Virus record (IMG/VR): IMGVR_UViG_2836824207_000004
Span: 10,278 to 74,277 of that record
Strand: one strand, 5' to 3'
Length of the DNA: 64,000 nt
DNA from: a virus
Lineage: Duplodnaviria > Heunggongvirae > Uroviricota > Caudoviricetes
Each line of letters starts with the position of its first letter. Position 1 is the first letter of the stretch. The notes beneath the pieces are model-generated. The model saw nothing but the letters and a program-made list of their open reading frames with translations, was not told the origin of the DNA and searched no databases. The translations under genes were made by a program, and so were the position numbers. Positions 1-38,779 of the stretch are shown one piece after another.

Positions 1-2395
1 CACGTTCTTCTTTTAAATTGAGCTTGTTAAACTGTTCGATCACCGTTTTAGCTAGCGTTTTTTGACTTGGCTCAATAAAATAACGCGTCATCTCTGAACT
101 CAGATCTCGATCAAGTAAGGTTTTTGTTACTTTATTAATAAAATTAAATGGGTGAGCCAACACTTCTGGCGTTTCACCTGTTTTAAGTGTAAGAGCCATC
201 ATATGTTCTTGTGTTTCCAAAGACACGTCCCCGTTTTTATCCACATAGCGTTTGGCTAAACGATAATCGGTTTTTAATGTTTCAATTGCTGCTTTAGTTT
301 CTTCAAATAAAGCGATATGAGTTTCGTTTTCTTCACTTTCTGGAATGTAATCTCGCCCATTTGGTAAATCATCAGCATTTTTAATCGCCGCAACGGATTG
401 AATAAGTTTGCGAAGCACGCCAACATTACGTAGCCCAGAAAAAACTTCAGTTTCCACTTCTCGCCCATCTACGGTACTTTCCTCGCGGGTCTCAATATAG
501 CAAAAATTTTCCAAAAATTGATCCGCACCTTTAATCCCTGTAAGACCATTGACTTTTTCTTCGCCGACAGCCAAAGAAAGCATTGAATAAATTTCTAATG
601 GGGAATTCGTAATAGGGGTTGCCGTGAGACAAAGTACACCATCTTGCTTTTGATTTTGCCCTCGTATATACCAGGCTTTAACCGCACCATTCACACCTCT
701 TGCTGAGGGATCAGCAAGTGAAAGCCATTTAACACGGCTACCAAAATTTCCTTTTTTGCCATTTTTGAAATTATGAGCTTCATCAATCACAAGACTATCA
801 ATGCCCATCAGCTCCAATAATTCGTTTTTCATTTTAGAGCCAATTAATTTTTTCAATTTGGCTAATGCCGATTTAAGCCGCTCATTATCCGCTGTACGTT
901 CTCCAAATTCATATTGGCGATCAAATTGACCTTGTGCCGATAAATAACGTTCAAGCGTATCGTCTTTCAATGAAATGGATTCAAAAGCTTCCATTGTCAT
1001 AAAAATCTTATCGTGCTTATTGTCCAAAATTGACACTAAATCAGCAGGCACTTCACTGGATTTTACGCTGAGATTGCCAGCTTTATCTTCTCTAATACCA
1101 ACAAATAAACAACGTGCAAAAACCTCATCAGCGTAAATGCCTTTTGCCTCTTTTCTCCAGTTAGTCAGCGTCGTATTAGGCACACAGAAAATCGTTTTCT
1201 TTTTAATGTTAATGGATTGTAAATGCTGAATGGTTAATAACGCACTCGCCGTTTTCCCAAGCCCTACATCAAATCCACAGATCCCACCAAATTGACGTGA
1301 TTGCTGGCGAATAAACGCCGCTTGATGAGGGCGGGGTTGGAAATCTGAATTTATCCCTATCATATTTAATGGTTCGCCATTCTCAATATTGCGGAACATT
1401 AACGCATCAGGATCATTGACTTTCTTATCGATTTCACCCATTAATTTTGAATTAGATTTCACCCACGCAGAGAAACGAATATTGGCAGAAGCAAGGATTT
1501 TTTTCATTAATACTCGACGTTCTTTGTCTTCTTCTTTTGTTTTCGCCGCCGTGGTAAAGCTGTGTGTGGTGACAAAGTTCGCTACACGCTTTAATACTTT
1601 GTCTTCAATGCTTTCATAAGAAGATGAACGGGAGGGCTTAAACTCAACCACCTGCTCCCCTTTCGTATTGGTACGAACAATGAAATTGCCCCTGCCATTT
1701 GAAACATATTGATTAAGAAAACGTACACGATCTTCAAGGCTAACAAAACTGGTTGTGATCTCAAAATCCATATCACGCACATTTGCACGCAATAACCGTT
1801 CTTCTGCTGCATTAAGTTGATTAATGAGCTGTATTTTATGTTCCCCCTCAGCTTGAGCAATCGCCTCTTCGTGTAATGTTCGAAAATCTCCAAAGTTTCC
1901 CGAATAATAATCCTCAGCGGAAATAATATTTTCACCGTTTAAGCTCACACACCATTCTTGAGATTGATTTAAATCAATCTCTGGAAAATGTTGTTGGAAA
2001 ATGGCTTTTGAAATTCCTCCATTAAGCCCAAATTTCGCCCCTTGCTCATACAGCAATTTTTCGTATTGTTGTGAAACGCTAAGCGAGGTGTTTTGTTCTG
2101 CTATTTGTGCCGTTTGCCCGAGCCAATACTCAGAAAAACGATTATGTTTTACCTCATAAACTTTAGGCGTTGAAGTCATAATCTTCAATGTGCCTTTCAT
2201 TCGTTTATCAAACCACACAGGGACGCGTGTTTTAGTAAGACGCAAGCGTTTGATTTGCTCTGAAAGCGTAGGGTAGAGTTCAAGTTTGTTAATGTTAGAT
2301 TGATTGGCGTGTTTTTGTTCGGCTTCATCATAAGCCAAAACCACAGTTGCCGTGGTTAAATCATTTAAAGAGAGCATTGTTTTCCCCTTGGTCAT
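1..2395 (-). CDS. SNF2-family DEAD/DEAH-box helicase, N-terminal ~800 aa; gene runs past window start
   Basis: Manual minus-strand translation from ATG at 2393-2395 stays open to position 1. It is absent from the ORF track because no stop lies in the window. Motif I ...RQFGGICGFDVGLGKTASALL (~1230-1270) and the DEAH box SLVIDEAHNFKN (~765-800) are present. The first ~300 aa have no recognised domain. Confidence 0.8.
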   Translation of the reverse strand, partial: MTKGKTMLSLNDLTTATVVLAYDEAEQKHANQSNINKLELYPTLSEQIKRLRLTKTRVPVWFDKRMKGTLKIMTSTPKVYEVKHNRFSEYWLGQTAQIAEQNTSLSVSQQYEKLLYEQGAKFGLNGGISKAIFQQHFPEIDLNQSQEWCVSLNGENIISAEDYYSGNFGDFRTLHEEAIAQAEGEHKIQLINQLNAAEERLLRANVRDMDFEITTSFVSLEDRVRFLNQYVSNGRGNFIVRTNTKGEQVVEFKPSRSSSYESIEDKVLKRVANFVTTHSFTTAAKTKEEDKERRVLMKKILASANIRFSAWVKSNSKLMGEIDKKVNDPDALMFRNIENGEPLNMIGINSDFQPRPHQAAFIRQQSRQFGGICGFDVGLGKTASALLTIQHLQSINIKKKTIFCVPNTTLTNWRKEAKGIYADEVFARCLFVGIREDKAGNLSVKSSEVPADLVSILDNKHDKIFMTMEAFESISLKDDTLERYLSAQGQFDRQYEFGERTADNERLKSALAKLKKLIGSKMKNELLELMGIDSLVIDEAHNFKNGKKGNFGSRVKWLSLADPSARGVNGAVKAWYIRGQNQKQDGVLCLTATPITNSPLEIYSMLSLAVGEEKVNGLTGIKGADQFLENFCYIETREESTVDGREVETEVFSGLRNVGVLRKLIQSVAAIKNADDLPNGRDYIPESEENETHIALFEETKAAIETLKTDYRLAKRYVDKNGDVSLETQEHMMALTLKTGETPEVLAHPFNFINKVTKTLLDRDLSSEMTRYFIEPSQKTLAKTVIEQFNKLNLKEER

Positions 2396-2443
2396 ATTTT
2401 CTCAAGAGAATTATGAATAATGTAAAGTTAGACCATTGGGAAA

Positions 2444-2460
2444 TTTTCCTATTAGGAAAA
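2444..2460. promoter_or_regulatory. 17-bp near-palindrome TTTTCCTATTAGGAAAA (copy 1 of 6) in divergent helicase/rha intergenic region
   Basis: Exact motif, repeated at 10631, 20334, 25138 (inverse orientation), 28863 (half) and 35344 (half). All copies sit 30-70 bp upstream of minus-strand late-type genes. Confidence 0.5.
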
Positions 2461-2607
2461 ATCAAAATTTCTCTTTTCATCTATTTCTTATTATTCACTC
2501 AAGCCCTAAAAGATAGTGCCAGTACTCACGAAAGCAGCGTTTATACTTTCCGCTCGCTGTTTCTTTTAGGGTGCTTGAGTCACCTAGCGGAAATAAGGAA
2601 AGTTAAA

Positions 2608-3138
2608 ATGCAATTAGCCAACCCAGAAAATTTTAAACAGTTTGTACAAATTAAAGATAACAGTACGGTAACCACTTCTGAGATTGTGGCAAAAGTGTTT
2701 GGAAAGCGACACGATAATGTTATTCGTGATATTCGGGCTATTCTACAAGAATGCGATGAGGATTTTGCAAAACTCAATTTTGAGGTTTGTTTTAAAATCA
2801 ATAAGTTACAGAATGGTAAACCCACACCTTATTATAATTTAACTAAAAACGGATTTATGTTACTTGTAATGGGCTATAAATCCAAAAAAGCAATGAAGAT
2901 GAAAATTGCTTATATTCAAGCTTTTGATTATATGGCTGGTGAATTGGCAAAAGGGGCGGCAGGGTTACTAGAGCAGTATTATCAATTATTAGGTGAGCAT
3001 AATGCCGAAAAACAATTTGCTAGTCTTTGTGGCAAAGGGTTAAACCAATGGAAAGAGAAAAAACCATTAATTGAGGCAACACTTCGATTATTTGAAGACA
3101 AAATGCAAATTGAGCTACCATTATTGAATAAGCTCTAA
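2608..3138 (+). CDS. Rha-family phage regulatory protein (antirepressor-like)
   Basis: N-terminus MQLANPENFKQFVQIKDNSTVTTSEIVAKVFGKRHDNVIRDIR matches the Rha (pRha) domain pattern. An AAGGA RBS precedes the ATG at 2608. The track ORF starts earlier at 2347 but overlaps the helicase start. Confidence 0.7.
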   Translation: MQLANPENFKQFVQIKDNSTVTTSEIVAKVFGKRHDNVIRDIRAILQECDEDFAKLNFEVCFKINKLQNGKPTPYYNLTKNGFMLLVMGYKSKKAMKMKIAYIQAFDYMAGELAKGAAGLLEQYYQLLGEHNAEKQFASLCGKGLNQWKEKKPLIEATLRLFEDKMQIELPLLNKL

Positions 3139-3156
3139 GCATACGAAAAATTAAAT

Positions 3157-3186
3157 CCCTGTTGACCTCAGCAGGGTTTTCTTTTA
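3157..3186 (+). terminator. Rho-independent terminator after rha
   Basis: Hairpin ccctg-ttgacctcag-caggg followed by a T-run. Confidence 0.6.
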
Positions 3187-3320
3187 TATTACCCACATAG
3201 GCGTCGAAACCTACAACCAAAGGCGGTAATCCGCACCCGACAGCATAGCGGTTTTTTTATGCGTAAAATTTGTGTTTCTCCTTTTTTCTCATAACGAATT
3301 GAACGCACATATCACTCTAT

Positions 3321-3398
3321 GCCGAGAGGGCGGAGAATAAAACACCCGAAAGGGGAATAATCCCGACCGTTCCTTTGGCGGTTTTCGAACCTCTTGGC
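3321..3398 (+). ncRNA. Conserved structured 5-prime leader element, copy A (cis-regulatory RNA candidate)
   Basis: Closing stem gccgagagg / cctcttggc encloses an acccGAAAgggg GNRA hairpin and a second hairpin. It is homologous to copies B (4225-4301) and C (36564-36639) with compensatory base changes. It is preceded by a conserved block GCGGTTTTTTT..TAAAATTTGTGTTTCTCCTTTT. Confidence 0.35.
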
Positions 3399-3419
3399 AA
3401 CCCAACTTAAGGACTAGAA

Positions 3420-3899
3420 GTGCAATTTGTCGAAACAAGTGAGAATAACATCACTTATATTCATACCGAATTTAATATTGAAAATGTAACTTATTTAGCC
3501 ATTTTTTCAAAAGATGATGAAACGTTATTTTTCTTTAACGATGACGTAAATATAACAAAATACATTCATCATCGTCAGGTATATTCTATTAAATTTCTTG
3601 TGAAAGATTATCTTGAAACAGAAAATGATGATTTGTACGCGCCACCGTTGGATCATAAATTTGGCAAAAAACAAATTGCTGAATTAAAACAAAAACTTGA
3701 GGAAATTGTCTATCAGCATTATTTAAGGTTTAAGCCAGATTGCTATGTTTTTGTAGGGGAACGCCCTTCATTAATCAGAATGTATAAAAAACTTTGTGCA
3801 AACCCAAGCGATTTTATGGTAAACTTTAAGCCAATAACGGATTTAGGCAGTCATAGAGATTGTTTTGTGATAAAAACCCCATCCTACAAGGAGGAATAA
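3420..3899 (+). CDS. hypothetical protein (159 aa), GTG start
   Basis: ORF with an AAGGA RBS, lying behind leader copy A. No recognisable domain. Confidence 0.5.
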   Translation: MQFVETSENNITYIHTEFNIENVTYLAIFSKDDETLFFFNDDVNITKYIHHRQVYSIKFLVKDYLETENDDLYAPPLDHKFGKKQIAELKQKLEEIVYQHYLRFKPDCYVFVGERPSLIRMYKKLCANPSDFMVNFKPITDLGSHRDCFVIKTPSYKEE

Positions 3900-3900
3900 A

Positions 3901-4011
3901 ATGATGAAGAAAACGACCGCTGCCGAAATGAAAAAACAAGCAGCCCAAAAATTTAAAAAAGCGTATCAACAAGCGAAAAAAAATGGCGCACTAAAAGAAA
4001 TTTCAGAATAA
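3901..4011 (+). CDS. small basic protein (36 aa)
   Basis: Strong RBS AAGGAGG 8 nt upstream of ATG 3901. Sequence MMKKTTAAEMKKQAAQKFKKAYQQAKKNGALKEISE. Below the ORF-track length cutoff. Confidence 0.45.
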   Translation: MMKKTTAAEMKKQAAQKFKKAYQQAKKNGALKEISE

Positions 4012-4028
4012 CCCCCTTAGTACAATTA

Positions 4029-4060
4029 CCCCTAGCAGTGAAAATTGGTAGGGGTTTTTC
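4029..4060 (+). terminator. terminator-like hairpin plus T-run
   Basis: acccctagc...gtaggggttttt. Confidence 0.4.
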
Positions 4061-4224
4061 ATTTGACAACCCAAATTTATTTCATTACTATTAGTTTCAT
4101 AGGTGTCAGAACCTTAGTAGCGGGAATCCGCAACCGAAATCCAATGCGGTTTTTTTGTGTCTAAAATTTGGTGTTTCTCCTTTTCTCAGCCAAGTTTAAC
4201 AAAAAACGGTAAATGACAATCAAT

Positions 4225-4301
4225 GATCGAGTGGGTGAGGAATACAATACCCGAAAGGGAAATAACTCCAGCTTACTACTAGGCTTCTGAACCACTCGAT
4301 C
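4225..4301 (+). ncRNA. Conserved structured 5-prime leader element, copy B
   Basis: 10-bp closing stem gatcgagtgg / ccactcgatc, internal cccGAAAggg GNRA hairpin and agctt..aggct hairpin. About 85% identical to copy C, with GU and compensatory changes. Confidence 0.4.
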
Positions 4302-4360
4302 ACCAGTTACCTTTATGATAAAGGCAACTGACATTATTCAGAAAATTAGTAGAGGCAATT

Positions 4361-5257
4361 ATGTCAAATATCATCACCGCTGATTACAACGGCACTCAAG
4401 TTTTCTTTCAAAACGACGCTTATCTCAATGCAACAGCAATTGCTAAACGCTTTAACAAACGCCCTAATGATTGGCTAAATTTACCAACCACACAAGAGTA
4501 CATTGAAGCCTTATCAAAAGCCGAAACAAGAAAATCTGGTAACGCTACCAAAGTGGAAAAATCCCACTTTGTAAAAACAGTAAGAGGTGGTAAAAATTTA
4601 TCAAAGCAAGGAACTTGGCTACATCGCCGTTTAGCTGTTCCATTCGCCCGTTGGTTAAATGTTGAATTTGCAATTTGGTGCGATGAAGAAATCGAGAAAA
4701 TACTAATCGGGCAAAAACAGGCAAACTTATTAACAACAGAAAACGACACCATCACCCCCGAAGAACAACGCCTTATTCAAAACGCCGTTGCTGCAACTCA
4801 TCAACGTACCAAAATGAGTTATGGCGAAATCTGGGCAAGAGTGAAAAATAAATTTGCGGTGGCGAAATATGAGCAAATCAAACGCAAAGATCATCGTGAT
4901 GTGATGATTTACATTGCTTCAATGCACTCAATGCAAGAATTGCCACCCAATAGCCTTGCGTTAGATATGGAAAATTTCTATATGCTAGCTAAAGCAATGA
5001 ATTACATCAATCATTCTGTTGCCGCTTGGGAGCGTTTAGAAGATTTATTTTCTGATTTGGAAAGCCATAAAAACTACAAAACCGCTTTCAACCTTGGCAC
5101 TGCGAGCAATCGCCTTGCACAAACGCTAGAAAGCTTTATCGCCAAGCACACCCAATCGCTTAAAGATAAAAACATACGCGAAGAAATCGAAAACTTGATT
5201 TTTAACAGCCCAAGAACAGAGCAAAGCCCCACAAAAACCGTAAATTACTTACGTTAA
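4361..5257 (+). CDS. phage antirepressor: KilA-N-like N-terminal domain plus C-terminal domain shared with the 35588-36523 paralog
   Basis: N-terminus ITADYNGTQVFFQNDAYLNATAIAKRFNKRPNDWLNL is KilA-N-like. The C-terminal ~170 aa is ~95% identical to the paralog. Confidence 0.7.
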   Translation: MSNIITADYNGTQVFFQNDAYLNATAIAKRFNKRPNDWLNLPTTQEYIEALSKAETRKSGNATKVEKSHFVKTVRGGKNLSKQGTWLHRRLAVPFARWLNVEFAIWCDEEIEKILIGQKQANLLTTENDTITPEEQRLIQNAVAATHQRTKMSYGEIWARVKNKFAVAKYEQIKRKDHRDVMIYIASMHSMQELPPNSLALDMENFYMLAKAMNYINHSVAAWERLEDLFSDLESHKNYKTAFNLGTASNRLAQTLESFIAKHTQSLKDKNIREEIENLIFNSPRTEQSPTKTVNYLR

Positions 5258-5339
5258 AAACCTAACCAAAACCGACCGCACTTCCTCGTGAACCGTGTGG
5301 CGGTTTTGCTCAACCTAAATTCAGTGAAAAGGTGGAATT

Positions 5340-5456
5340 ATGTTCAGAATTTTAATGATTATCGGCTTGTTGTGGTGTGCGTACGAACTCGATTTAGCTT
5401 CAGACTGCGATGGGCATTATTGTGGAATAACCACAGATTTGTTAGTGAAAAAGTAA
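5340..5456 (+). CDS. small hydrophobic protein (38 aa), conserved in both antirepressor cassettes
   Basis: RBS AAGGTGG precedes the ATG. Sequence MFRILMIIGLLWCAYELDLASDCDGHYCGITTDLLVKK. The paralog at 35389-35505 differs only by conservative substitutions. Confidence 0.5.
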   Translation: MFRILMIIGLLWCAYELDLASDCDGHYCGITTDLLVKK

Positions 5457-5464
5457 GAAAAAAA

Positions 5465-5495
5465 CGACCGCACTTTGTTGTGCGGTTCTTTATCT
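5465..5495. terminator. bidirectional terminator formed by an inverted USS pair
   Basis: accgcac-tttgtt-gtgcggt flanked by A/T runs. It lies between convergent genes. Confidence 0.6.
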
Positions 5496-5502
5496 TTACC
5501 AC

Positions 5503-6492
5503 TTACTGAATAAACGTGTCCGTTTGAACAAATCGCATCGTAAATTCTTGCATTGCGTCTTCTCGGCGACTGAAATCATATTCAATGCCAACAGGGCGGG
5601 CGATAATGGTTTCTTCAAAGCCACCGTTATTTGTCGCATCATTCACAAAAGCGTGCAGAATGCGGATTTGCACTAAACCGTCTAATAATACGCCCACCGT
5701 GCCATCTTTATGGATCATTGCTGAGGCTTGTTGTTTGAAAAAGCGTTTGATTGTGCCTTGTTCATCGTCCATTGTGGTGATCGATATTTCCGCCTGTTGT
5801 GAGCTTTTTACGCCATCAATGATTGCCGAACCGACATTGTACTGATCAGCCTCAATGGAGAATGGCGTGTAATTAATTTCTGTCGCTAACATATTAAAAT
5901 TAGAGGTAATCCCTCCGCCTTGTTCTCCTAATGCATTCAAAACAGGGATTGAATTAATAGCGTGATTGATGGCAGTTGTTGTAATTGATCCCGCAGCTTT
6001 GCCCCACGCACCACCGATACTAGACGAGAGTTCAGAACCGACTGCCTGACTAATCATTCCGCTTAGACTTCCAAATGCAGATCCTGAATAAGGGGAGATA
6101 TTTAGGAGCCATAAATTCTTTCTTGCTTGCTCTGTCGCATAGGATAACATTATTAATCTTTTGACTTCTTCCTGAGATAACTTCGCTGTCAAAGGACTAC
6201 TTGCAAGCCAAAACTTACTGGAATCGCTACCTATTAATCCTGGTATAAACTTATTGAGTACATTTGAGTTAATAATTGATCCCACAACATTTGCGACATT
6301 CTCAGCATTAAATCCTCCATTGATAAGTTGAACCGCCCCATTAAGAAAAGGGAGCTTATCAGAAGACATTTTAGACGCTGCTATTTTTACGCCCTGATTA
6401 ACAAGCGTATTTCCTATCTTCCCTAATGGGCTATCGCCAAATAAGTCCATTGCTCCGTTTCCTTTAGAACCAACTTCATCAAAAATTCCCAT
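5503..6492 (-). CDS. hypothetical protein (329 aa), Gly/Ser-rich, co-operonic with the ejection-type protein
   Basis: Track ORF ending 1 nt before the upstream gene. No recognised domain. Confidence 0.55.
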   Translation of the reverse strand: MGIFDEVGSKGNGAMDLFGDSPLGKIGNTLVNQGVKIAASKMSSDKLPFLNGAVQLINGGFNAENVANVVGSIINSNVLNKFIPGLIGSDSSKFWLASSPLTAKLSQEEVKRLIMLSYATEQARKNLWLLNISPYSGSAFGSLSGMISQAVGSELSSSIGGAWGKAAGSITTTAINHAINSIPVLNALGEQGGGITSNFNMLATEINYTPFSIEADQYNVGSAIIDGVKSSQQAEISITTMDDEQGTIKRFFKQQASAMIHKDGTVGVLLDGLVQIRILHAFVNDATNNGGFEETIIARPVGIEYDFSRREDAMQEFTMRFVQTDTFIQ

Positions 6493-7554
6493 TTACTCCT
6501 CCCCTGTTTTATTTTGTCTAATTTGTGCTTCAACTTGATGCAAGGCAGATAATACATTAAGCTTTTGTTGTGCATTTTTTCTATCTTTCCTAAATCGCGT
6601 TGGTGTTGGATTACTTAATGTTTGGCGATAACGAGAAAATAAGGTCGCTGCTATTTTTTGTTCTTGTTCACTTAAAATATCCCCATTTTCAACTTGCATT
6701 TTTGCAATATGCCGTTCCATCTGTCGCCTTGTGGTTTGCGTTTTGACTATTTTCGTCTTATCTTTCACTTGATATTGTTTCAAAATCGCTTTCACCAAAA
6801 ACTTATGAAATCCTGCATTTTTCTGAATGGTTTGCATTACCCGCAAAACGTGTTTACAAGCAATACCGTGTAAATTAGGATTGCGGATTTTAGGATAGGC
6901 TGTTTCTTTTCGTGCTAATGGATTTGTCCCCACATAAGCAAACCCGCCAATGGTTGCAATATAGCGATACCAGAATGTATGCCGTCCACAATCACAATCA
7001 AATTTTAATAATGAGGTTTTAAGTTGTTTGGCATCAATTTCGGCTTGCTTTTTAGGTTCGAGGTTAATCAGATGTTTGGTAATTGAACCAAATGCAGTAA
7101 ATTCAACATTGACATAATGTTTAGTCTCATTATATTTACCACTTGCTGCTGTGATAAAAGTAATCACTAAAGATCCTCTTGATGGGAGATAGCTTGCAGC
7201 AACAGGCTGTGCCCAAGGAATTTCCTTACTTGCTCTGGTTCTATCAATCGCACGAGACTTATTAATCACAAACTCAGCTGTTACCCCCTCTTTATATTTG
7301 CTATCTAAACGATGTCGTTTTCTATCAAATTCAATGAGGTCCTCTGCAGTGATCGGTCTTGACACCCCACCTAATGTGGTATTTAAAATCTCAGAAAAAC
7401 TCCCCTGAGATAAATCACCATACATTTCAGCAATTCTATGTTCAGGCAATAATCGAGAATGCTCTACGTGATTTCTTCGACTAATCTCTTGTTTAGCCCG
7501 AACTTTTTGGTGATTTAATTCAATGGACGCGATAGATGCTTGTCTTGCCATCAT
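6493..7554 (-). CDS. SWIM-type zinc-finger protein (353 aa)
   Basis: CDCGRHTFWYRYIATIGGFAYVG...HGIACKHVLRV fits the CxCx(n)CxH SWIM signature. Confidence 0.55.
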   Translation of the reverse strand: MMARQASIASIELNHQKVRAKQEISRRNHVEHSRLLPEHRIAEMYGDLSQGSFSEILNTTLGGVSRPITAEDLIEFDRKRHRLDSKYKEGVTAEFVINKSRAIDRTRASKEIPWAQPVAASYLPSRGSLVITFITAASGKYNETKHYVNVEFTAFGSITKHLINLEPKKQAEIDAKQLKTSLLKFDCDCGRHTFWYRYIATIGGFAYVGTNPLARKETAYPKIRNPNLHGIACKHVLRVMQTIQKNAGFHKFLVKAILKQYQVKDKTKIVKTQTTRRQMERHIAKMQVENGDILSEQEQKIAATLFSRYRQTLSNPTPTRFRKDRKNAQQKLNVLSALHQVEAQIRQNKTGEE

Positions 7555-10500
7555 TAAATTCTCCCTTTCTGTGCTATTCCACCCGTTACGATATGAGCAA
7601 TACGACGATCAGAAACATCTTGAGTCAAATATTGAGCAGCTGGATCTAATGAATTCGATGCTTGAGCAGTAGATTGTTCGACTTTTTGTTGCTCTATTGT
7701 TGCTTTTTTTGCCGTCTCTTGCTCAACGATTTTTAGCGACTCTTTTGAGGTATCTTGTGGCTGTTTAATCTTAGGTATAACCATACCATCTATCGATGAA
7801 ACCGGTTTCATCTGAGAAAGTAAGTCTGTATTTTTCTCTACATATTGTTTACTTAATCCAGTCATCTCGACAGGGTTATTCATAAATTTATCAACAGAAT
7901 TTAATTTGCTTTGCCCTTTTAGCAAGGCATCCCTTCCGTGAGCATTTGTCGTTACATTACCAATAATACCCGCACTAAAACGCGTAAAATCTTTTCCATA
8001 AGATCGATCTTTTAAATAAGCGTCGGCGACTTTGGCGGCGATAACTGGATCATTAACTAAGTCAGGGTTATTCACTAAATCTTCCCCGATCATTTGTCCA
8101 TATCGCATATAATTAGCCCTTCCAGTCAATTGAACAAGCCCGCGACCTCTGAAACGCCAACCATCTCCCTCCTGAGTATTACCTAGCTTAGAGCCATTCG
8201 CATCAGCATATACAACGTTAGCGAGTGCCTCAGGATTACGAACTAACGTGTTTACATCCCCACCCCATTTTTTTATTTTTGCACCGTGTACAGCCATAAT
8301 GCGTTCAGCCGAGCTATAATTCATATTTTCAGATGCCCCGTGTGCGAAATCGCCTGTTTCTCTCGCCATATTAGCAAGTGCAAAACGAATATCTTGTTCT
8401 GATGCACCATTCTTTCGAGCAATTTCAATATAGGCATCTCTCGCTTTAGCGGCATCCCCTTTATTATCAAATGAAACCACACTAGATGAATTGCTCACAG
8501 GCATACCGTTTTCAGTTATAGAAGAAGTCGGGTAGCCTACTTGCTCATTTATATAAGTCGCACCTCCTAATTTCTCTTTTAGAAAAGCAAAAATGTCATT
8601 TAATGTTGTAAAAATTAAACTTAGATATTCATTACTCAATGATACTCGTTCATTCGTATTACTGATTGCATTTACATTTTCTTCTTGAGAATGATTAACT
8701 TGTTGAAGCTGTTGCTCTACCTCTTGAGGCGAGTTTTCTGTAGGAGTTGAATGATTTAGCCCCAACCACCCACTGATCGTACTGATCGCAGAATCGGCTT
8801 TATCGACCGCCCAGTTTTTTACTGATGAACCAATATTTTTTGCACCCTGTACAGCTTGAATCCCAAGTCCTACTGCACCATCCTTTATTTTTGCACCAAT
8901 ATTTTTAGTTGTTTTCCATACGCCTGAGAAATCTAATTCATTCCAAACAGATGTAATCCAACTACTCACGCCCTCCCAAATTTGGTTTAGCTTTTCCCCA
9001 AAACTTCCCCAATCAAGACTATCCCATTGCGTTTTGATCCAACTGCTTGTGCTATCCCACGCTGCACTGACTTTAGCGGAAAAACTATCCCAACTAAGAT
9101 TGTCCCAAGTATCTTTTATCCACGCAATTGAAGCATCCCAAGCACCTGTAATTTTTTTACCAATAATACTCCAATCAAAATCTGCCGCCCACGCACCAAT
9201 TTTTTCACCTATCCAGTCGCCGATCATTGCCCCTGCAATCGTGCCAACAGGCCCTAAAAGCGATCCAATCCCCCCTCCAATTAAGGTGCCAACAGCCCCG
9301 CCGACACGTTTACCACGGTTTGATTTTCCCTCTTCATCTCGGCTATCATCAAATAATCCGCCAATGCCATCGCCAATTGCTAAAAGTGAACCTAATATAG
9401 GAATTTTCTTTAATGCCCCCTTCCCTAATCGTCCAAGCCCACCAAATATACCTTTACCAAGTTTGCCAATACCTCCCAAAAGCCCAGCACCCAATTTACC
9501 CGCACCGCCAAGCATTTTTAAAAGACCTCTTCCAATTGCAGTGGCAAACATAAAAGGTAATCGAGCCAAAAGGAAAGGGAAGCGGGCAAACATTCTCAAT
9601 AACCCAAATAATCGCCCAAAAACGCCATTTCCATTAGGCTTCTTCCAGATCCGCTTTAGCCAACTATTTTGTTGGTTATCAGCTTTTTCCTGTTGCTTAG
9701 TGAATTTTTTAAAAAATCGAAAGAAACGATTATGCTGACGCTGCTCTTTATCTTGGCCTCCAAATAACTTGCCAAATCCTCGCCCAGTAGCACCAACAAC
9801 AGTTTTCGTGGTATCAAATACCGAACCTAGCGGCCCTGTAATTTCTTTGACGCCATCAATAAGCGGATCGAGATTATCAGGGGTATCTATGGCATCTTTA
9901 ATTCCACTTAGCACTTCAACCATTGCGTTTTCGCGTGCAAGTTCCTGTGTTTCCTCCTCCGAATCTGATTTAGTCGGATTTTTTATGCCTTGTTCATCAA
10001 GTTCTGCCTCTTTGACAAAACGTCCGTCTTTATCTCGAACACGCCCGTTTTTATCTCGTTGCCATTGGTTAGGAAGCACTTCAGCATTCTCAGTCCTTTC
10101 CTTTTTCTTTGGTGGTTTATTCTGTTCAAGAATAGGTTGCGTTTGCTGTTTCGAGCTTTTTGTCTGACGTGCTTTTACAACTGGATTTAATTTTTCTTTT
10201 CCTGGATGTGTTTTACGTTCTTTAAAATGTCCAGTGTCAAATCTTGATTTATCATTTCGTTCTTCTTTCTGTTTTACTTTATGCAAATTCTCCTGATTTT
10301 TTGACCGCACTTTATCAACGACCTTGGGTGTTTTCAGTGCTTGAATTAATTCCTCGTTTGTGCGTTTTTCTGACAAATGACGCGATTTTGCTTGTTTCTC
10401 GGCTTGTGCTAACAGTGCAATTTGACGACCACCAAAATTCTCCAAAATATCGCGAATAGATGCGGTATCTTCCTTAATCTCAACTAAGGTATCACGTTTT

Positions 10501-10598
10501 TGTTCTTCTACGGTTTGTGCTTCATTTTGATTCGGGTTTTCAAATAACCCATCTTTTTCTGACATTGTGCTACTCCTTGGCAAATTGAGATGCCACAT
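7554..10598 (-). CDS. large virion/ejection-type protein (1014 aa) with glycine-zipper membrane region, Trp-repeat region and GH19-like lysozyme domain
   Basis: Gly-zipper stretch GGAGKLGAGLLGGIGKLGKGIFGG. Repeated W-x-x-S/D motifs. C-terminal region ...GDGWRFRGRGLVQLTGRANYMRYGQ... is typical of GH19-like phage muralytic domains. Confidence 0.75.
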   Translation of the reverse strand: MWHLNLPRSSTMSEKDGLFENPNQNEAQTVEEQKRDTLVEIKEDTASIRDILENFGGRQIALLAQAEKQAKSRHLSEKRTNEELIQALKTPKVVDKVRSKNQENLHKVKQKEERNDKSRFDTGHFKERKTHPGKEKLNPVVKARQTKSSKQQTQPILEQNKPPKKKERTENAEVLPNQWQRDKNGRVRDKDGRFVKEAELDEQGIKNPTKSDSEEETQELARENAMVEVLSGIKDAIDTPDNLDPLIDGVKEITGPLGSVFDTTKTVVGATGRGFGKLFGGQDKEQRQHNRFFRFFKKFTKQQEKADNQQNSWLKRIWKKPNGNGVFGRLFGLLRMFARFPFLLARLPFMFATAIGRGLLKMLGGAGKLGAGLLGGIGKLGKGIFGGLGRLGKGALKKIPILGSLLAIGDGIGGLFDDSRDEEGKSNRGKRVGGAVGTLIGGGIGSLLGPVGTIAGAMIGDWIGEKIGAWAADFDWSIIGKKITGAWDASIAWIKDTWDNLSWDSFSAKVSAAWDSTSSWIKTQWDSLDWGSFGEKLNQIWEGVSSWITSVWNELDFSGVWKTTKNIGAKIKDGAVGLGIQAVQGAKNIGSSVKNWAVDKADSAISTISGWLGLNHSTPTENSPQEVEQQLQQVNHSQEENVNAISNTNERVSLSNEYLSLIFTTLNDIFAFLKEKLGGATYINEQVGYPTSSITENGMPVSNSSSVVSFDNKGDAAKARDAYIEIARKNGASEQDIRFALANMARETGDFAHGASENMNYSSAERIMAVHGAKIKKWGGDVNTLVRNPEALANVVYADANGSKLGNTQEGDGWRFRGRGLVQLTGRANYMRYGQMIGEDLVNNPDLVNDPVIAAKVADAYLKDRSYGKDFTRFSAGIIGNVTTNAHGRDALLKGQSKLNSVDKFMNNPVEMTGLSKQYVEKNTDLLSQMKPVSSIDGMVIPKIKQPQDTSKESLKIVEQETAKKATIEQQKVEQSTAQASNSLDPAAQYLTQDVSDRRIAHIVTGGIAQKGRI

Positions 10599-10630
10599 TA
10601 TCTAGCTCTGCTATCTTCTCGCCTCGGTAA

Positions 10631-10647
10631 TTTTCCTATTAGGAAAA
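10631..10647. promoter_or_regulatory. TTTTCCTATTAGGAAAA motif copy 2
   Basis: Exact 17-mer in the divergent intergenic region 10599-10714. Confidence 0.5.
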
Positions 10648-10714
10648 ATCCAAAAATCCGAATTCAGCTCATTTCTAAAATGAAAGCTCTATTTACACAA
10701 TACAGGAGCTTTTT

Positions 10715-11227
10715 ATGGCATTAACAACAGCTGGACATTTGAAAAATCATTTTTCATTACGTCAAACAATGGGGGCAGACGCGACGAACTCTGATGCCAC
10801 TTTAGTCATTGATGGTTACGAGAATTTCTTCATTAAAGTTAAGTCGTTTCCTGATCCCTCTAGTGGCATTAGCGGGAATATTGAAGTCCCTTCCCCACTT
10901 GGCAACATTTACTATAAGCCTCAACAAGCAAAAACGGCATTTAATGGTTCAGCATCATTTTTAGAAACCGAAGATCGTGCTGTTCAAGCAATGCTTGACG
11001 AGATCAAACTGAAAGGCGGTTACTTCAATGCGTGGCTATATCACGGCGATCCTGACAAATATGTCAATCGAAAACGCTTAGAAAAATGCTTCTTTGAACA
11101 AGCTGCACCAACACAGCGTGATATGCAGTCAAATACCGAAATCCTGCTTATCGAGGGTGATATTTCAGGCAATTACTTCGGTGAGATTGAACAAGGGAAC
11201 GTTCAAACCTTAATGGGAGGCTACTAA
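10715..11227 (+). CDS. hypothetical tail/baseplate-module protein (170 aa)
   Basis: First gene of a four-gene plus-strand operon ending in the gpV-like spike. Confidence 0.45.
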   Translation: MALTTAGHLKNHFSLRQTMGADATNSDATLVIDGYENFFIKVKSFPDPSSGISGNIEVPSPLGNIYYKPQQAKTAFNGSASFLETEDRAVQAMLDEIKLKGGYFNAWLYHGDPDKYVNRKRLEKCFFEQAAPTQRDMQSNTEILLIEGDISGNYFGEIEQGNVQTLMGGY

Positions 11228-11230
11228 TCA

Positions 11231-11614
11231 ATGATAGAAATGACGGTAAGCGAACTTGCTGAAAATTATTCAGGGCATTTGCGTCCGACAGGGCTTGTTA
11301 TCACTGATGATGTCATTTTATCCCAAGCCCTTAAAGCTACTCGCTATTATGAGGGTTTTGGCGGATTGGCATTTTCTGAAGAAGGATCAAAGCAAATTAC
11401 TCCTGATACCCCTTTAACCAAAAGTGAACTTACTGTCATTTCACCGTTATTTGAGCTTTATGTGGAACGAGAAAATGCACTCATTCTTGAAGCGAGCCGT
11501 ACTCTAGGCGTTGAAGTCTATGGACGAACAGTATCGGAAATCAATAGCGATATTGTACAAAAAGAACAAGAAATTCAGCATTTAGCATTTCAATTCGATA
11601 TTATCACTATCTAA
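11231..11614 (+). CDS. hypothetical tail/baseplate-module protein (127 aa)
   Basis: Tightly packed in the operon with a 3-nt spacing. Confidence 0.45.
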   Translation: MIEMTVSELAENYSGHLRPTGLVITDDVILSQALKATRYYEGFGGLAFSEEGSKQITPDTPLTKSELTVISPLFELYVERENALILEASRTLGVEVYGRTVSEINSDIVQKEQEIQHLAFQFDIITI

Positions 11615-11616
11615 TA

Positions 11617-12528
11617 ATGGAAATTATTTTACCTAATAACAAAGTGTTGCGAGGTGATTTAACGCCTCTTGTGATCAAAAGGACAGATTTAACTGCTGTG
11701 CCATCAACCCTTGAATGTTTGATTCGAGTTGATAATGAATTAAATGAATTTATTCAAGAAGGGGAAATCATATCACTCGCTGAAAAAGACGTGAAGTATC
11801 GAATTATTGCTACCTCAAAGCAAGGCGATGGAATTAGAACCCAGGGAAACCCAGACTACACCCTGACTAAAGTCATTGCAATCTTAGATTCTTGTCATCA
11901 AATTGCTTTCGCAAAACAAAAAGCCATCATAAAAGAAAATACGAATTTTAGCACAATTTATCGTGCTTGCGGAGCAACTATTGGCGTATCAAAGGATATT
12001 AAAGTGCGTCGTTTTTCCTGTTATATCGGCTCCCCACCGAGTTTTCAAATTCAACAAGCTTTGCAACGTGAAGCAGCAACGATAGTTTGGGATGGCAAAC
12101 AAACTATCGCTTTTACCCGATTACGAGATCTATTTGAACAGCCACCTAAAGAAATTTTGCAACAAGATTGTACACAAGAATTTATTAGTGGTTTTGTCGA
12201 ACGACACGAAATACCCGCCTATTATTCAAATACAGAAAATGGTGATGTAATTACATCAACCACCAAATTAGGACGAGGAGCGGATTTTGCAATGTTTGCC
12301 GATAAGCAAATCTTAAATAATCTATCCACTTACCTAATTCAACGAAAAGTATGGACAACTAGGCTGACTCCTAATATCAATGCTGGAGATATCATAGAAG
12401 TGGAACATAAAAAGTATGTAATCATCACTGCAACCCATCTATTCAGCCAGTTTGACGCTGGTTCAGGATCGCAATTAAGCCGATTTTGGCTGGGCGAATT
12501 ATCTAATATGGTGAATAAAACAAAATAG
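11617..12528 (+). CDS. hypothetical protein (303 aa), possible baseplate hub (position-based)
   Basis: Lies immediately upstream of the gpV-like gene. No motif recognised. Confidence 0.4.
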   Translation: MEIILPNNKVLRGDLTPLVIKRTDLTAVPSTLECLIRVDNELNEFIQEGEIISLAEKDVKYRIIATSKQGDGIRTQGNPDYTLTKVIAILDSCHQIAFAKQKAIIKENTNFSTIYRACGATIGVSKDIKVRRFSCYIGSPPSFQIQQALQREAATIVWDGKQTIAFTRLRDLFEQPPKEILQQDCTQEFISGFVERHEIPAYYSNTENGDVITSTTKLGRGADFAMFADKQILNNLSTYLIQRKVWTTRLTPNINAGDIIEVEHKKYVIITATHLFSQFDAGSGSQLSRFWLGELSNMVNKTK

Positions 12529-12536
12529 GAGGAAAA

Positions 12537-13076
12537 ATGAAATTATTACCTGCTGAAGTGAAAAGTTGGGACGGTGTAAAAATGCGAATCGCCATTCCAG
12601 GCTATACCGATGGAGCAGATCAATTTCCCGAAGCGGAAATTTGCTACCCGCTTGCCGATAGACCCGCTGATACGGGCTATAAAATTCTCCCCGGTGATGC
12701 CATTTGGATTATGTTTAACGGCGGCGATGAAAATAGCCCTATTGTAATGGGCTTTCGCAATAAAAATACAGGAGTCAATAAAGATAAACGCTTTCTTGAG
12801 CATAAAAACTTTGAAACCAAAGCCGAAAATGTAATGAAAGAAAGTGCCAAAACCCACGAAATAACCGCAACAGATTTATTCACCGTAACTAGCGGAAAAA
12901 TTGTCTTTAATGCACCGGTACAGATCAACGGATCATTAAGTGCTTCTGGCGATGTTTCCATAGAAGGCGGATTTAATGCCAAAGGCAATATTTCAACGGA
13001 GGGAGACATTAATGCAACTGGCGATATTCATTCTAACGGCTCTATCACTGACAGTGATGGAGATGGCGGTGCTTAG
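12537..13076 (+). CDS. baseplate spike/assembly protein V-like (179 aa)
   Basis: ILPGDAIWIMFNGGDENSPIVMGF resembles the P2 gpV OB-fold core (..GEQVLILAVGGELDTAFVLPG..). The C-terminus is a beta-helix-like GDVSIEGGFNAKGNISTEGDINATGDIHSNG. Confidence 0.6.
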   Translation: MKLLPAEVKSWDGVKMRIAIPGYTDGADQFPEAEICYPLADRPADTGYKILPGDAIWIMFNGGDENSPIVMGFRNKNTGVNKDKRFLEHKNFETKAENVMKESAKTHEITATDLFTVTSGKIVFNAPVQINGSLSASGDVSIEGGFNAKGNISTEGDINATGDIHSNGSITDSDGDGGA

Positions 13077-13161
13077 TTAAGTTATTTTGTTCTGTTCGCG
13101 TGTAGTAGTATAAATGGTCACCCTACACGCCAACATCATTGAATACCCATTATTCTAACGA

Positions 13162-14154
13162 TTAACTATAATTTCTTGCACTTACCATCAATCCTCTTAC
13201 CCATTGCGGGATTTTCTGGCTATCTAGTCCCATTGATCTCACTTGGGCGATAAGTTCCAACAACCGATTTAAATCAAGATCACTTTCAATCGCAACAAGT
13301 GGCGAATGGTATTGTTCTAATTCGGTGTAAATATCATCAATCAACGTTGGCTTCGTTTCAGCTAATTTGGCATTCACCCAAGTTCCCTTTTTATATTCTT
13401 TAAGTACACCATCAAAATATAAGGTTTCGCCCTCTTGATAGGTGATGACGGGTTCATCTGCGGCATTGAGTAATGCCCAGTCAATCCGTGAACCCTCAAA
13501 ACGACGTAATAATTTAGCAATATTGGCAACACTCTCATCAGACATTACCGCTAAAACATCTTCACCATATTTTGACCGCACTTTGCTTTCTGTACCCAGA
13601 ATATATTGTGGGTTCGCTTTAAAATAACGCCCACTGATAAAGGTTTCCCATAAAACGTTCGCTTCTTTTAATATTTCTGGTGATGAATTTGCCAACTCAT
13701 CAATAATCAGTTTGTTAGGTCGGCTATGTTTCTTAAAGACCAATACATCAGTAACCACATCAGCCCCAGCAGTTTCAAACAGTTTATTCGGCAACCGATA
13801 CGCCCCCATAAATTCCGCTTTTAGAGAAATTTGATGGCGGATTTTGCGATAGCGTGTTCCCGTCATAATGCCTGTGCCACTCATAAACACAGCCAGCCCA
13901 TTCGGACGTAATTTATCTAGCGAACGCAAAATAAAGTAACTTTCTAGGTTTTCTTTTTGATAACGGCTATCTTTAAATTGATTACCCCCGCGATTATCCC
14001 CAAAAGGAACATTGGTAATCACTGCATCAACAATTTCATCTTCTGTCGCAGCAGCAACCGCCTCAAAGGGACTGATCGTAACTTTATGGCTATCATCATT
14101 AAATAAAATCTGATTGATTGTGCCACTCGTCTGATCAAGCTCAATACTTTCCAT
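13162..14154 (-). CDS. N6-adenine DNA methyltransferase C-terminal portion (motif IV NVPF); split from upstream ORF
   Basis: VITNVPFGDNRGG lies about 50 aa from the start. Motif I of the same domain is at the C-terminus of the preceding ORF. The junction is TAATG next to a G5 run. Confidence 0.65.
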   Translation of the reverse strand: MESIELDQTSGTINQILFNDDSHKVTISPFEAVAAATEDEIVDAVITNVPFGDNRGGNQFKDSRYQKENLESYFILRSLDKLRPNGLAVFMSGTGIMTGTRYRKIRHQISLKAEFMGAYRLPNKLFETAGADVVTDVLVFKKHSRPNKLIIDELANSSPEILKEANVLWETFISGRYFKANPQYILGTESKVRSKYGEDVLAVMSDESVANIAKLLRRFEGSRIDWALLNAADEPVITYQEGETLYFDGVLKEYKKGTWVNAKLAETKPTLIDDIYTELEQYHSPLVAIESDLDLNRLLELIAQVRSMGLDSQKIPQWVRGLMVSARNYS

Positions 14155-15080
14155 TAAAACATTTTGGGGGCTGTCGCACTAAAAATCCCCGTTCCCGCAC
14201 AAGGATCAAGCACTTTCCCACCACTAAATCCCATTTCCGTTAGCAAGTCCCACATTCCTTGTGCGATGGGTTTTGGCGTGTAATATTCATAGCTTGATCC
14301 TCGAGTTCCTTCAGCGGTAGTCAACCCACCACCAGATCCAGAATAATGCGATAAAATGATTTTTTGTTCTTGTGTAATGTCATCAATATTCATCTCACCA
14401 CGTTGAACTTTCTGTACAATCTCAATTGCCGCATTGTTGGCCGCTTGTCGTTGAGTTTGAGTTATGCCTTCGGGATTGTAATTAAATAAATCTGTAGGAT
14501 TAACTACTGTTTGTGATTCGTATTTGTCTCCTAGCCCTAAACTTTTTTCATACAATGATTTTAAATCTGAATATTCACCTACTAATTGATAAGATTGAGC
14601 ATCACCAATAGAAACCCAAGCAAAATCGTGCAATTCTTCTTTTTGTAATTTCACGTTTTGAGAGGCATCAACTACCAATAAGAAACGGTGCGATTCTCCG
14701 CCACTTGGTAGCTTTTTTTGCTCTAGAAATTCAACAGTACTAGCTTTAATACCTGTTTCTTCTTTTAATTCACGAATCGCTGCTTGTGCGGGAGTTTCGT
14801 TTTCTTCAATATGTCCGCCTGGGATCCACCATTTACCAGGTTTAAATTTGTCAGAAAGCGAACGTTGAACCAATAATATATTGCGATCTAAATCCTTAAC
14901 CAGCACATCTGCATAGCTATTTTGTTTATTTGACTCACGATCAATCACGCCTAATTGAGCAAGTAAGGCCTGAACCTTACCTGCTAACGCAATTTTTTGA
15001 ATAGGATTTGCTTCCGCTGTCATTGCATCGACAGCATCATTTAATTCGCCTGCCAACTTAATTTTTAATAAAGCATCCAT
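14154..15080 (-). CDS. Nudix hydrolase domain plus N6A-methyltransferase motif I (308 aa); truncated fusion
   Basis: Perfect Nudix box GGHIEENETPAQAAIRELKEETGI. C-terminus VLDPCAGTGIFSATAPKMF* is gamma-class methyltransferase motif I. Confidence 0.75.
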   Translation of the reverse strand: MDALLKIKLAGELNDAVDAMTAEANPIQKIALAGKVQALLAQLGVIDRESNKQNSYADVLVKDLDRNILLVQRSLSDKFKPGKWWIPGGHIEENETPAQAAIRELKEETGIKASTVEFLEQKKLPSGGESHRFLLVVDASQNVKLQKEELHDFAWVSIGDAQSYQLVGEYSDLKSLYEKSLGLGDKYESQTVVNPTDLFNYNPEGITQTQRQAANNAAIEIVQKVQRGEMNIDDITQEQKIILSHYSGSGGGLTTAEGTRGSSYEYYTPKPIAQGMWDLLTEMGFSGGKVLDPCAGTGIFSATAPKMF

Positions 15081-15092
15081 TATCTATTCCCC

Positions 15093-16028: not shown

Positions 16029-16060
16029 TAAATAATCAGCGATTTCTTCTTGTGTTTCAT

Positions 16061-20266: not shown

Positions 20267-20333
20267 ATCAAATTATCCTTTTGTGAAAATAATAGGCACA
20301 GCATACGCACTTACTTTAAAGCGATGATTGCAA

Positions 20334-20350
20334 TTTTCCTATTAGGAAAA
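20334..20350. promoter_or_regulatory. TTTTCCTATTAGGAAAA motif copy 3
   Basis: Exact 17-mer between divergent starts 20266 (-) and 20417 (+). Confidence 0.5.
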
Positions 20351-20416
20351 ATACCGCACTTTTTCTCACTGTATTTTTCATAATACGGGTATATATCTCA
20401 ATAAAAAGGAAATGCA

Positions 20417-23453: not shown

Positions 23454-23462
23454 AAGGTGTCC

Positions 23463-38770: not shown

Positions 38771-38779
38771 GAGATTACG

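Follow-up and report, generated by a model that had tools for sequence, protein, structure and literature searches.

Why should a phage encode a large SNF2 helicase and, more than 10 kb away on the same strand, a fragment of an adenine methyltransferase with which such helicases are usually fused? The question is raised by the left end of a stretch of 64,000 nucleotides (nt) from the IMG/VR virus record IMGVR_UViG_2836824207_000004 (positions 10,278 to 74,277), hereafter called the window. The window is part of an integrated prophage of Avibacterium paragallinarum that combines P1-like morphogenesis genes with a P1-type Dar (defence against restriction) gene set. A preliminary description, made from the letters of the window alone, had proposed that the distant methylase fragment was the natural partner of the helicase. 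The data below identify the two as halves of a homologue of the P1 antirestriction protein DarB, separated by a conserved gene fission. The two-gene split is new; the parent system, P1 DarB, was already known. The pieces concerned are the following:

1-2377, minus strand: helicase half of the split DarB homologue; its first 792 codons lie in the window, counted from the ATG at 2377-2375.
2384-2389, minus strand: Shine-Dalgarno (SD) sequence AAGGGG, 6 nt upstream of ATG 2377; CCAAGG(G/A)GA is also found in relatives L097 and L089.
13162-14154, minus strand: methylase half, C-terminal open reading frame (ORF), with the catalytic NVPF motif and a C-terminal helical region; N6_Mtase (Pfam).
14154-15080, minus strand: methylase half, N-terminal ORF, with a 45-amino-acid (aa) N-terminal helix motif, Nudix, an LPD36-position stretch and motif I.
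14166-14170, minus strand: run of five C residues (C5), one base fewer than in strain NCTC11296 (C6); the frameshift splits the methylase half in the window strain.

Helicase and methyltransferase fragment do lie on the same strand, as first described (open frame from 2395 and ORF 13162-14154, both minus). When compared with phrog_11801 of the PHROGs collection (2269 positions), the three ORFs match successive, non-overlapping segments, at positions 74-186, 190-510 and 535-1302 (E = 4e-45, 7e-101 and 4e-162, respectively). They are likewise collinear with P1 DarB, whose residues 47-130, 135-392 and 787-1560 they match, with 38% identity over the methylase and 28% over 834 aligned helicase residues (DarB 787-1560). 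A query reconstructed by repairing the frameshift and joining the two halves retrieved 472 homologues. Of these, 120 were listed, and nearly all have a length of 2100-2500 aa, align with both halves in one BLASTP alignment and cover 85-98% of the query, some of them with a Nudix domain; one (P0066) combines Nudix, methylase and helicase in a single polypeptide and covers 98% of the reconstructed protein. In eight fused proteins, the methylase and helicase matches lie only 9-17 residues apart, and over 119 fused proteins the median implied gap between the halves is -4 residues. At the junction itself, ...IPQWVRGLMVSARNYS* and then MLSLNDLTTATVVLAY... tile the variable-length linker of the fused proteins. 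Judging from these alignments, helicase ORF and methylase ORFs are parts of one P1 DarB-type protein, and nothing appears to have been lost at the split. By PHROG match, fused homologues and collinearity with P1 DarB alike, the distant fragment is the evolutionary partner that had been proposed.

The minus-strand frame that begins at ATG 2395 stays open for 798 codons, until it leaves the window at its left end. The gene is complete in NCTC11296, where it forms an ORF of 1714 aa, 1708 aa from the conserved start. The motifs GLGKT, DEAH and QRNGRGVRQG are all present. Pfam matches to SNF2-rel_dom, ResIII and DEAD occur only from ORF residue 352 on, with Helicase_C also found, and ORF residues ~20-350 match the stretch between the two domains in fused homologues (residues 539-849 in P0001, for example). 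Residues ~1-340 are thus the DarB inter-domain region, with the SNF2 core after it and a long C-terminal region last. This fits the earlier suggestion that the ~300 N-terminal residues without helicase motifs are the linker of a former fusion. With the ~340-residue stretch that precedes the SNF2 core as query, an exhaustive search through 1.84 billion representatives gave 90 matches at E ≤ 0.001. In nearly all of the full-length proteins among them the match falls at ~500-1000, behind an N-terminal part of methylase length, and the region is thus specific to DarB-type proteins.

The helicase start had been placed at ATG 2395. The true start is the second ATG, at 2377, because helicase-only relatives begin there (all three of them, with MLxL) and because the SD sequence that precedes it and the -10 hexamer are kept in relatives.

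Fusion is the rule in this family. Among the viral loci recovered with the helicase, 64 of 68 have the methylase 1.2-2 kb upstream on the same strand, and in a second set of loci methylase and helicase share one open frame in 24 of 26. In the survey of Iyer et al. (2017; PMC5512222), this methylase is "nearly always fused" to the helicase. The uninterrupted methyltransferase-helicase giant gene that the preliminary description had suggested seeking in Pasteurellaceae prophages was found in a Gallibacterium anatis prophage (L006), where a DarA-like gene (1342 aa) is followed by a methylase-helicase gene (2227 aa) and a Ulx-like gene (147 aa). In the window, the two are not in one polypeptide: the methylase stop codon (13162-13164) and the helicase start (2377) are 10.7 kb apart, and the helicase has its own promoter and SD sequence. 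The split arrangement is identical in the second A. paragallinarum genome, NCTC11296, with both halves intact. Alignment-based scans of viral contigs for further split cases returned only the NCTC11296 prophage itself. An always separate helicase in related elements had been named as the observation that would speak against a former fusion; the helicase is indeed separate in the near relatives, but not in the more distant ones.

A break of another kind is seen in a high-GC (guanine plus cytosine) relative, L108 (8423-15250; IMGVR_UViG_2900588628_000001), in which a 599-aa methylase ORF adjoins a 1671-aa helicase ORF in a different frame. It lies ~75 residues into the linker, elsewhere than the Pasteurellaceae fission, and may be a frameshift error or an independent split.

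The methylase half ends 12 residues past a conserved P-x-W. Pfam recognizes NUDIX and the beginning of N6_Mtase in ORF 14154-15080 and the rest of N6_Mtase in ORF 13162-14154 (E = 1.5e-10 for N6_Mtase), motif I reads VLDPCAGTGIF, and the catalytic TNVPFG occupies the position where P1 DarB has GNVPFG. Residues 211-305 of the same ORF align to P1 DarB residues 47-130 with 39% identity, including YSGSGGG...EYYTPKPIA; by this alignment they would sit at the position of LPD36, the G-x-G-[GAS] helical domain that precedes the methylase (domain name after Iyer et al.). ORFs 14154-15080 and 13162-14154 overlap by one base, the upstream frame reading ...FSATAPKMF* and the other ...PQNVLMESIELD. In NCTC11296 the methylase half is an intact ORF of 726 aa with the same terminal residue, and in relatives it is a single ORF of 499-827 aa. 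The break at 14154, which cuts the motif I region in the window strain, is a frameshift, not a natural gene boundary. When 24 kb of the window were compared with NCTC11296, conserved coding sequence showed a single isolated homopolymer indel, that at 14166, which may reflect either a real inactivation or a sequencing error.

Fused relatives share the 45-aa N-terminal helix motif with the methylase half, as do those methylase-only proteins whose N-terminus is complete (the contig breaks off within the Chelonobacter sequence discussed below); the helicase half lacks it. Comparison with the first 30 residues of P1 DarB revealed no similarity.

Each half is also found alone in relatives. The helicase-only relatives from the exhaustive linker-region search have their residue 1 aligned to residue 7 of the window ORF. 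Two of them align end to end (P0121, 1714 aa, 66% identity; P0122, 1727 aa, 40% identity), and the third, P0123, is a fragment. Their contexts are portal, Ulx, helicase (L089; SRR22071719) and terS-like gene, Ulx, helicase (L090; SRR24915833). On the methylase side, P0002 from a metagenomic relative (L001; 827 aa, 81% identity) and P0200 from Rodentibacter pneumotropicus (499 aa, 81%) both end at P-x-W-V-R-x-x-M, with the tail-sheath operon next after the gene in both loci; P0201 from Chelonobacter oris (52%) ends ~25 residues later. Nucleotide similarity between window and L001 fades about five codons before the methylase stop. The ratio of non-synonymous to synonymous divergence (dN/dS) of the methylase half is 0.07 between window and L001, at a synonymous divergence (dS) of ~1.9, and 0.13 between window and NCTC11296. 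The helicase half shows 9 synonymous and 3 non-synonymous differences from NCTC11296 (dN/dS 0.09), and its ORF is unbroken for 1708 codons (NCTC11296) in a genome of ~39% GC. In rough neighbour-joining trees, the helicase-only proteins form one clade beside fused P0001 and the Gallibacterium proteins, and the methylase half falls in the same clade. The split is a conserved gene fission into two genes, old and maintained, under purifying selection.

The position of Ulx-like genes varies among these elements. In two split relatives (L089 1710-7393; L090 1522-7264) the helicase half is immediately preceded by one; the fused gene of Gallibacterium L006 (8381-15518), of the L075 prophage and of P1 is immediately followed by one. 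The window has its Ulx-like gene after the portal gene.

The halves also have their transcription signals in common. A palindrome, TTTTCCTAWTAGGAAAA, that is, TTTTCCTA(T/A)TAGGAAAA, occurs in four exact copies in the 64 kb, where 0.03 would be expected:

2444-2460, no strand: palindrome copy 1, TTTTCCTATTAGGAAAA, perfect 17 bp; TATTAT (2489-2494) on the other side, facing the Rha-like gene.
2410-2415, minus strand: helicase promoter, -10-like CATAAT; 28 nt separate it from the palindrome upstream and 32 nt from the ATG that follows.
10631-10647, no strand: palindrome copy 2, between the tail operon and the operon of the 170-aa gene; GATAAT 10597-10602, TAAAAT 10676-10681.
20334-20350, no strand: palindrome copy 3, upstream of the DarA-methylase operon (TATGCT 20300-20305) and of a divergent operon for a 288-aa tail-fibre-like protein (CATAAT 20379-20384).
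25138-25154, no strand: palindrome copy 4; CAAAAT 25104-25109 on the portal-Ulx side.

A -10-like hexamer lies at exactly 28 nt on seven of the eight palindrome flanks (CATAAT, TATTAT, GATAAT, TAAAAT, TATGCT, CATAAT and CAAAAT; chance P ~6e-11), the eighth facing a gene 3' end. The minus-strand hexamers are 31-33 nt upstream of SD-preceded starts, those of the helicase half, tape-measure, DarA-methylase and portal-Ulx genes. At the helicase -10, CATAATTCC is kept in L097 and L089, together with spacing and SD sequence. From its position, palindrome-N28-(-10) is read as a bidirectional late-promoter element. Both DarB halves share one promoter design, common to head and tail genes.

In the tape-measure-like and portal ORFs, the first in-frame ATG (10598 and 25097, respectively) lies in or beside a predicted -10 hexamer; the SD-preceded ATGs 27-33 nt downstream, at 10565 and 25070, are more likely to be the starts.

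Variants of the palindrome are found at corresponding places in Rodentibacter-type loci. The portal/DarA intergenic region of one of these (L091 6400-6620), when compared with window segments 20220-20440 and 25060-25280, turned out to be composed of the portal-side flank of palindrome 4 and the DarA-side flank of palindrome 3, joined at the palindrome. Gene order is not the same across the genera, and at least some of the breakpoints of operon shuffling therefore fall at the palindrome element.

The fission site was located on an AlphaFold2 model of P0143, a 987-residue fused homologue spanning the junction (mean predicted local distance difference test score, pLDDT, 88). The equivalent position is a four-residue loop between helices 521-530 and 535-558, with a pLDDT of 91-96. 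According to the model, the cut falls in a loop of a confidently predicted helical region, not in a disordered tether, and two fragments could keep packing together at such a loop.

Altogether, we consider it probable that this phage makes a two-gene DarB, born of a conserved fission, whose halves are expressed together late, re-associate, and are packed and injected. The fission would have occurred once, in the ancestor of a Pasteurellaceae prophage lineage, at the short inter-helix loop. The operons bearing the halves would have been reshuffled afterwards, with at least some breakpoints at the repeated palindromic promoter element. Both halves would be produced late from the common promoter design (17-bp palindrome, 28 nt, -10 hexamer, ~31-33-nt leader). 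In P1, the Dar proteins travel in the head, leave it together with the DNA and guard that DNA against type I restriction; DarB carries an N-terminal capsid-targeting signal (PMC9024508); it needs this signal, and Ulx aids its localisation (PMC9024508, PMC12810830). We propose that the conserved N-terminal helix motif brings the methylase half into the head and that the helicase half binds the methylase half non-covalently; packed in the head with other Dar proteins and injected with the DNA, the pair would block type I restriction in the way of P1 DarB.

Several observations weigh against so complete a picture. The two halves occur together only in A. paragallinarum, in two strains. Rodentibacter loci (≤18.6 kb) show the methylase half and no helicase, L089 (9.2 kb) shows the helicase half, and the N-helix/LPD3 protein of L089 stops exactly where the methylase would begin; the halves may thus be separable. 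By analogy with P1, the helicase half, having no N-terminal helix motif, would have no evident route into the capsid. With the methylase of the Chelonobacter lineage running ~25 residues on, a single shared breakpoint is not proven there, and the neighbour-joining trees carry no support values. In the window, moreover, the methylase half is frameshifted (C5 vs C6) and the DarA-like protein is in two frames: the DarA-methylase operon may be decaying in the window strain, and the Dar system, its methylase half being frameshifted, may be inactive in the sequenced strain.

The alternative that keeps most weight, unlikely as we think it, is that the halves are no longer partners but have acted since the fission as independent injected or intracellular effectors, each kept or lost alone. 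The R. pneumotropicus and L001 loci would fit, consisting of a V-like operon, portal/Ulx, DarA, methylase and sheath operon with no helicase in ≤19.8 kb, as would L089, with its helicase half after portal-Ulx and an N-helix/LPD3 protein that has no methylase domain. A word-indexed protein search found no helicase of more than 47% identity beside P0002 or in Rodentibacter-type elements, and a search with the linker alone gave no match at all, the contigs being short. The N-terminal domains of the methylase half are, in addition, freely swapped among relatives (Nudix, LPD3, both, none). However, the single-half contigs are all short, so that absence of the other half is not shown; both halves coexist in the two A. 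paragallinarum genomes and are intact in NCTC11296; and they have the promoter design in common. Family-wide, methylase and helicase domains hardly ever occur apart, as the locus counts above (64/68, 24/26) and the published survey (PMC5512222) indicate, and the junction lies in a confidently modelled helical region rather than a floppy linker, which suggests that both sides still pack.

A somewhat different idea, which we put forward only tentatively, is that in a lineage of Pasteurellaceae prophages the DarB methylase and SNF2 translocase modules are naturally separable and each retainable alone (the methylase in Rodentibacter-type elements, the helicase in L089-type ones), the helicase half, where both occur, docking on the methylase half or on Ulx for capsid entry. 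Ulx is a candidate because its gene is directly upstream of the helicase half in two relatives.

Much less credible than independent halves is a recent disruption, with the 10.7-kb block inserted in, or rearranged across, an intact DarB gene whose pieces are now decaying remnants. It would explain why the halves are collinear on the same strand, why the methylase half is frameshifted in the window and why the DarA-like gene, too, is split by a frame change. But start codon, SD sequence and -10 are kept in helicase-only genes at 66% identity, and the start methionine at 40%; the methylase end residue is shared with Rodentibacter at dS ~1.9; dN/dS values are 0.07-0.13; and the helicase ORF is intact at 1708 codons, as is the methylase ORF in NCTC11296. 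Nor do the junctions (2396 and 13161) show bracketing repeats, target duplication or mobility genes: only chance-level pairs were seen, such as 1959-1986 with 13255-13282 (75% complementarity), and the block is made of tail genes and regulators. The preliminary description had noted that removal of 2396-13161 would restore a gene in DarB order; the collinear order stands, and the insertion that it implied does not, given the split relatives and the missing flanking repeats.

Other routes to the present arrangement were considered and set aside. Insertion of a mobile element was rejected for want of a bracketing repeat pair, the block holding regulators and tail genes only. A split intein (N-intein ~100 aa, C-intein ~35 aa) would not fit in the ~12 residues after P-x-W and the ~4 non-homologous residues before the helicase homology. 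No single inversion or deletion converts the Gallibacterium or Rodentibacter order into the Avibacterium order, and we claim no pathway; inverting the segment that runs from the fission point through the 179-aa gene yields the convergent methylase/179-aa junction and leaves the helicase in the wrong orientation.

An assembly artefact, or an unrelated SNF2 helicase merely lying near a methylase fragment, can practically be dismissed: the helicase does leave the window edge, so that the window alone cannot give its full context, but the independent NCTC11296 assembly has the same order and the ~340-residue pre-SNF2 region is DarB-specific (90 matches in the 1.84 billion representatives searched).

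NCTC11296 is the nearest genome; its prophage, on a 173-kb contig, is identical to IMG/VR contig 2651869797_000027 and has the gene order of the window at 97-99% identity. A near-identity search of window positions 1-16000 against GenBank phages gave no match, P1-like phages appearing only as distant protein-level matches.

The 10.7 kb between the halves consists of three parts, followed by a short gap:

2608-5509, plus strand: block part 1; Rha-like regulator 2608-3138, 159-aa ORF 3420-3899, KilA-N/ORF6C antirepressor-like gene 4361-5257, and a 73-aa ORF.
5503-10598, minus strand: block part 2, tail operon; a 1014-aa protein (probable start 10565) and tail proteins of 353 and 329 aa.
10715-13076, plus strand: block part 3, tail/baseplate operon; four genes (170, 127, 303 and 179 aa), convergent with the methylase gene.
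13077-13161, no strand: gap between convergent gene ends, 85 nt, with a stable hairpin (-27.4 kcal/mol, z = -4.05) without U-tract.

This block is merely the current Avibacterium layout. Parts 2 and 3 had initially been described as an ejection-protein trio (5503-10598) and a gpV operon (10715-13076), and neither name could be kept. The 1014-aa protein matches tape-measure and endolysin/transglycosylase PHROGs and, near its C-terminus, a Pfam glycoside hydrolase (Chitinase class I); it is accompanied by two tail proteins. Matches of the 10715-13076 operon are to PHROGs for tail tube protein (phrog_1120), unknown function (phrog_5551) and tail protein (phrog_1390), with no PHROG match for the fourth gene (12537-13076). 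None of the four proteins has a Pfam match at E ≤ 0.001, including to Phage_base_V, GPW_gp25, Baseplate_J and Tail_P2_I, the families of P2 V, W, J and I. The hairpin at 13077-13161 may be a bidirectional terminator between the methylase and 179-aa genes; scanning the methylase 3' region for sigma-70 and terminator consensus sequences gave no match, and the gap holds no canonical terminator.

Within part 1, the 159-aa ORF and the KilA-N gene are each preceded by a ~110-nt stretch (3252-3360 and 4151-4265, respectively); the two stretches are 76-82% alike and look like repeated cassette leaders. In place of region 2631-3199, NCTC11296 has another, longer segment. Inspection by eye showed an inverted repeat, CCCTAAAAG...CTTTTAGGG, in the ~113-nt leader of the Rha-like gene (2495-2607), which may be an attenuator or antisense target.

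The DarB homologue is encoded alongside a DarA_N protein and Hdf-like, Ulx-like and portal genes:

15093-20266, minus strand: DarA_N + LPD3 polyvalent protein heading the operon that the methylase half closes as its last gene; two ORFs here (16061-20266 and 15093-16028).
23019-25684, minus strand: other Dar-system genes; Hdf-like 25214-25684, portal 23463-25097, Ulx-like 23019-23453.

ORF 16061-20266 (minus strand) encodes 1401 aa with DarA_N (Pfam, E = 7.8e-40) and three LPD3 domains, and ORF 15093-16028 a further LPD3 domain (Pfam). The frame switch within the window, at ~16030-16110, falls between ...TSPNG and KTFGGYAIA..., close to A and G runs, and the C-terminus of ORF 15093-16028 matches that of the single-ORF DarA-like proteins of relatives. 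A ~90-nt linker, repeated at 15282-15371 and 15927-16016, encodes ...I(R/T)D(K/L)xGNxI(D/S)L(D/E)... at domain boundaries. The cassettes N-terminal to the methylase vary among relatives between Nudix, LPD3, both and none (noted with L089 8438-9190 and L074 8813-10993). The N-helix/LPD3 protein of L089 stops right at the linker, without a methylase. All this suggests cassette shuffling at the linker.

PHROG matches across the prophage include head and Dar genes (Hdf-like, portal, Ulx-like, PmgG-like), tail and baseplate genes (sheath, baseplate, tail fibre), lysis genes, and lambdoid-type replication genes (O-like, DnaC-like, NinB, NinG). A toxin/helix-turn-helix antitoxin pair and two more DNA methyltransferase genes, of phrog_111 and phrog_116 types, are also present (38492-39073; 41917-42528; 61560-62948) and are unrelated to the DarB-type methylase.

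The mechanism of DarB protection is still not understood, and the 250-kDa fusion is hard to dissect. A natural fission marks a tolerated cut site, a defined inter-helix loop, and parts the capsid-targeting end from the ATPase, in strains that allow each half to be deleted or expressed alone. Natural separability of the modules, if true, would refute the idea of a DarB methylase strictly dependent on a covalently attached ATPase and would provide a ready two-component system for Dar loading and for dissection of each activity. For annotation, the locus carries a warning: an "SNF2 helicase" and a "truncated N-6 methylase" in a Pasteurellaceae prophage can be one antirestriction system, not a pseudogene plus an unrelated helicase. 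The palindrome-N28-(-10) element, for its part, offers a late-promoter signature for these prophages and a plausible substrate for operon shuffling between genera.

The closest known system is that of P1, whose DarB (2255 aa, virion-packaged) is a direct homologue with the same domain order and NVPF motif, in a late-gene setting and in the company of Hdf, a DarA_N protein, Ulx and portal. P1 DarB is one polypeptide, however, and the Avibacterium homologue is encoded by two genes 10.7 kb apart, its methylase half having an extra Nudix domain and a different N-terminal helix motif. P1 is a plasmid prophage; the Avibacterium element is integrated (NCTC11296) and has lambdoid-type replication genes. 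P1 DarB is antirestriction-active and packaged; for the Avibacterium homologue both properties are predicted. P1 late promoters, annotated in the P1 record with a -22 element and a -10 hexamer, resemble the window element in having a short element at a fixed distance from the -10, no -35, and a place before many morphogenesis operons, some of them divergent. The P1 element was considered as a match and rejected: it is AAGTGAC-like and located at -22, and the window element is a 17-bp palindrome centred near -49.

The fused gene of Gallibacterium anatis (L006; WP_039095727-type, 2224-2447 aa) comes from the same bacterial family and encodes one of the nearest fused relatives (48% identity for the methylase, 40-44% for the helicase). 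It, too, has a DarA-like gene upstream and a Ulx-like gene downstream, with homologues of the 329-aa and 170-aa tail genes nearby. It differs in being an uninterrupted 2227-aa ORF with all neighbours on one strand, and no exact copy of the Avibacterium palindrome was found in the L006 locus.

Finally, both halves together correspond to the polyvalent-protein dyad of Iyer, Burroughs, Anand, de Souza and Aravind (2017), with an LPD36-position stretch, an EcoKI/TaqI-like adenine methylase and a SWI2/SNF2 ATPase, the association with DarA-N and LPD3, and variable N-terminal add-ons. That survey argues that the methylase needs the ATPase (PMC5512222); in Avibacterium, by contrast, the dyad is carried by two transcription units.

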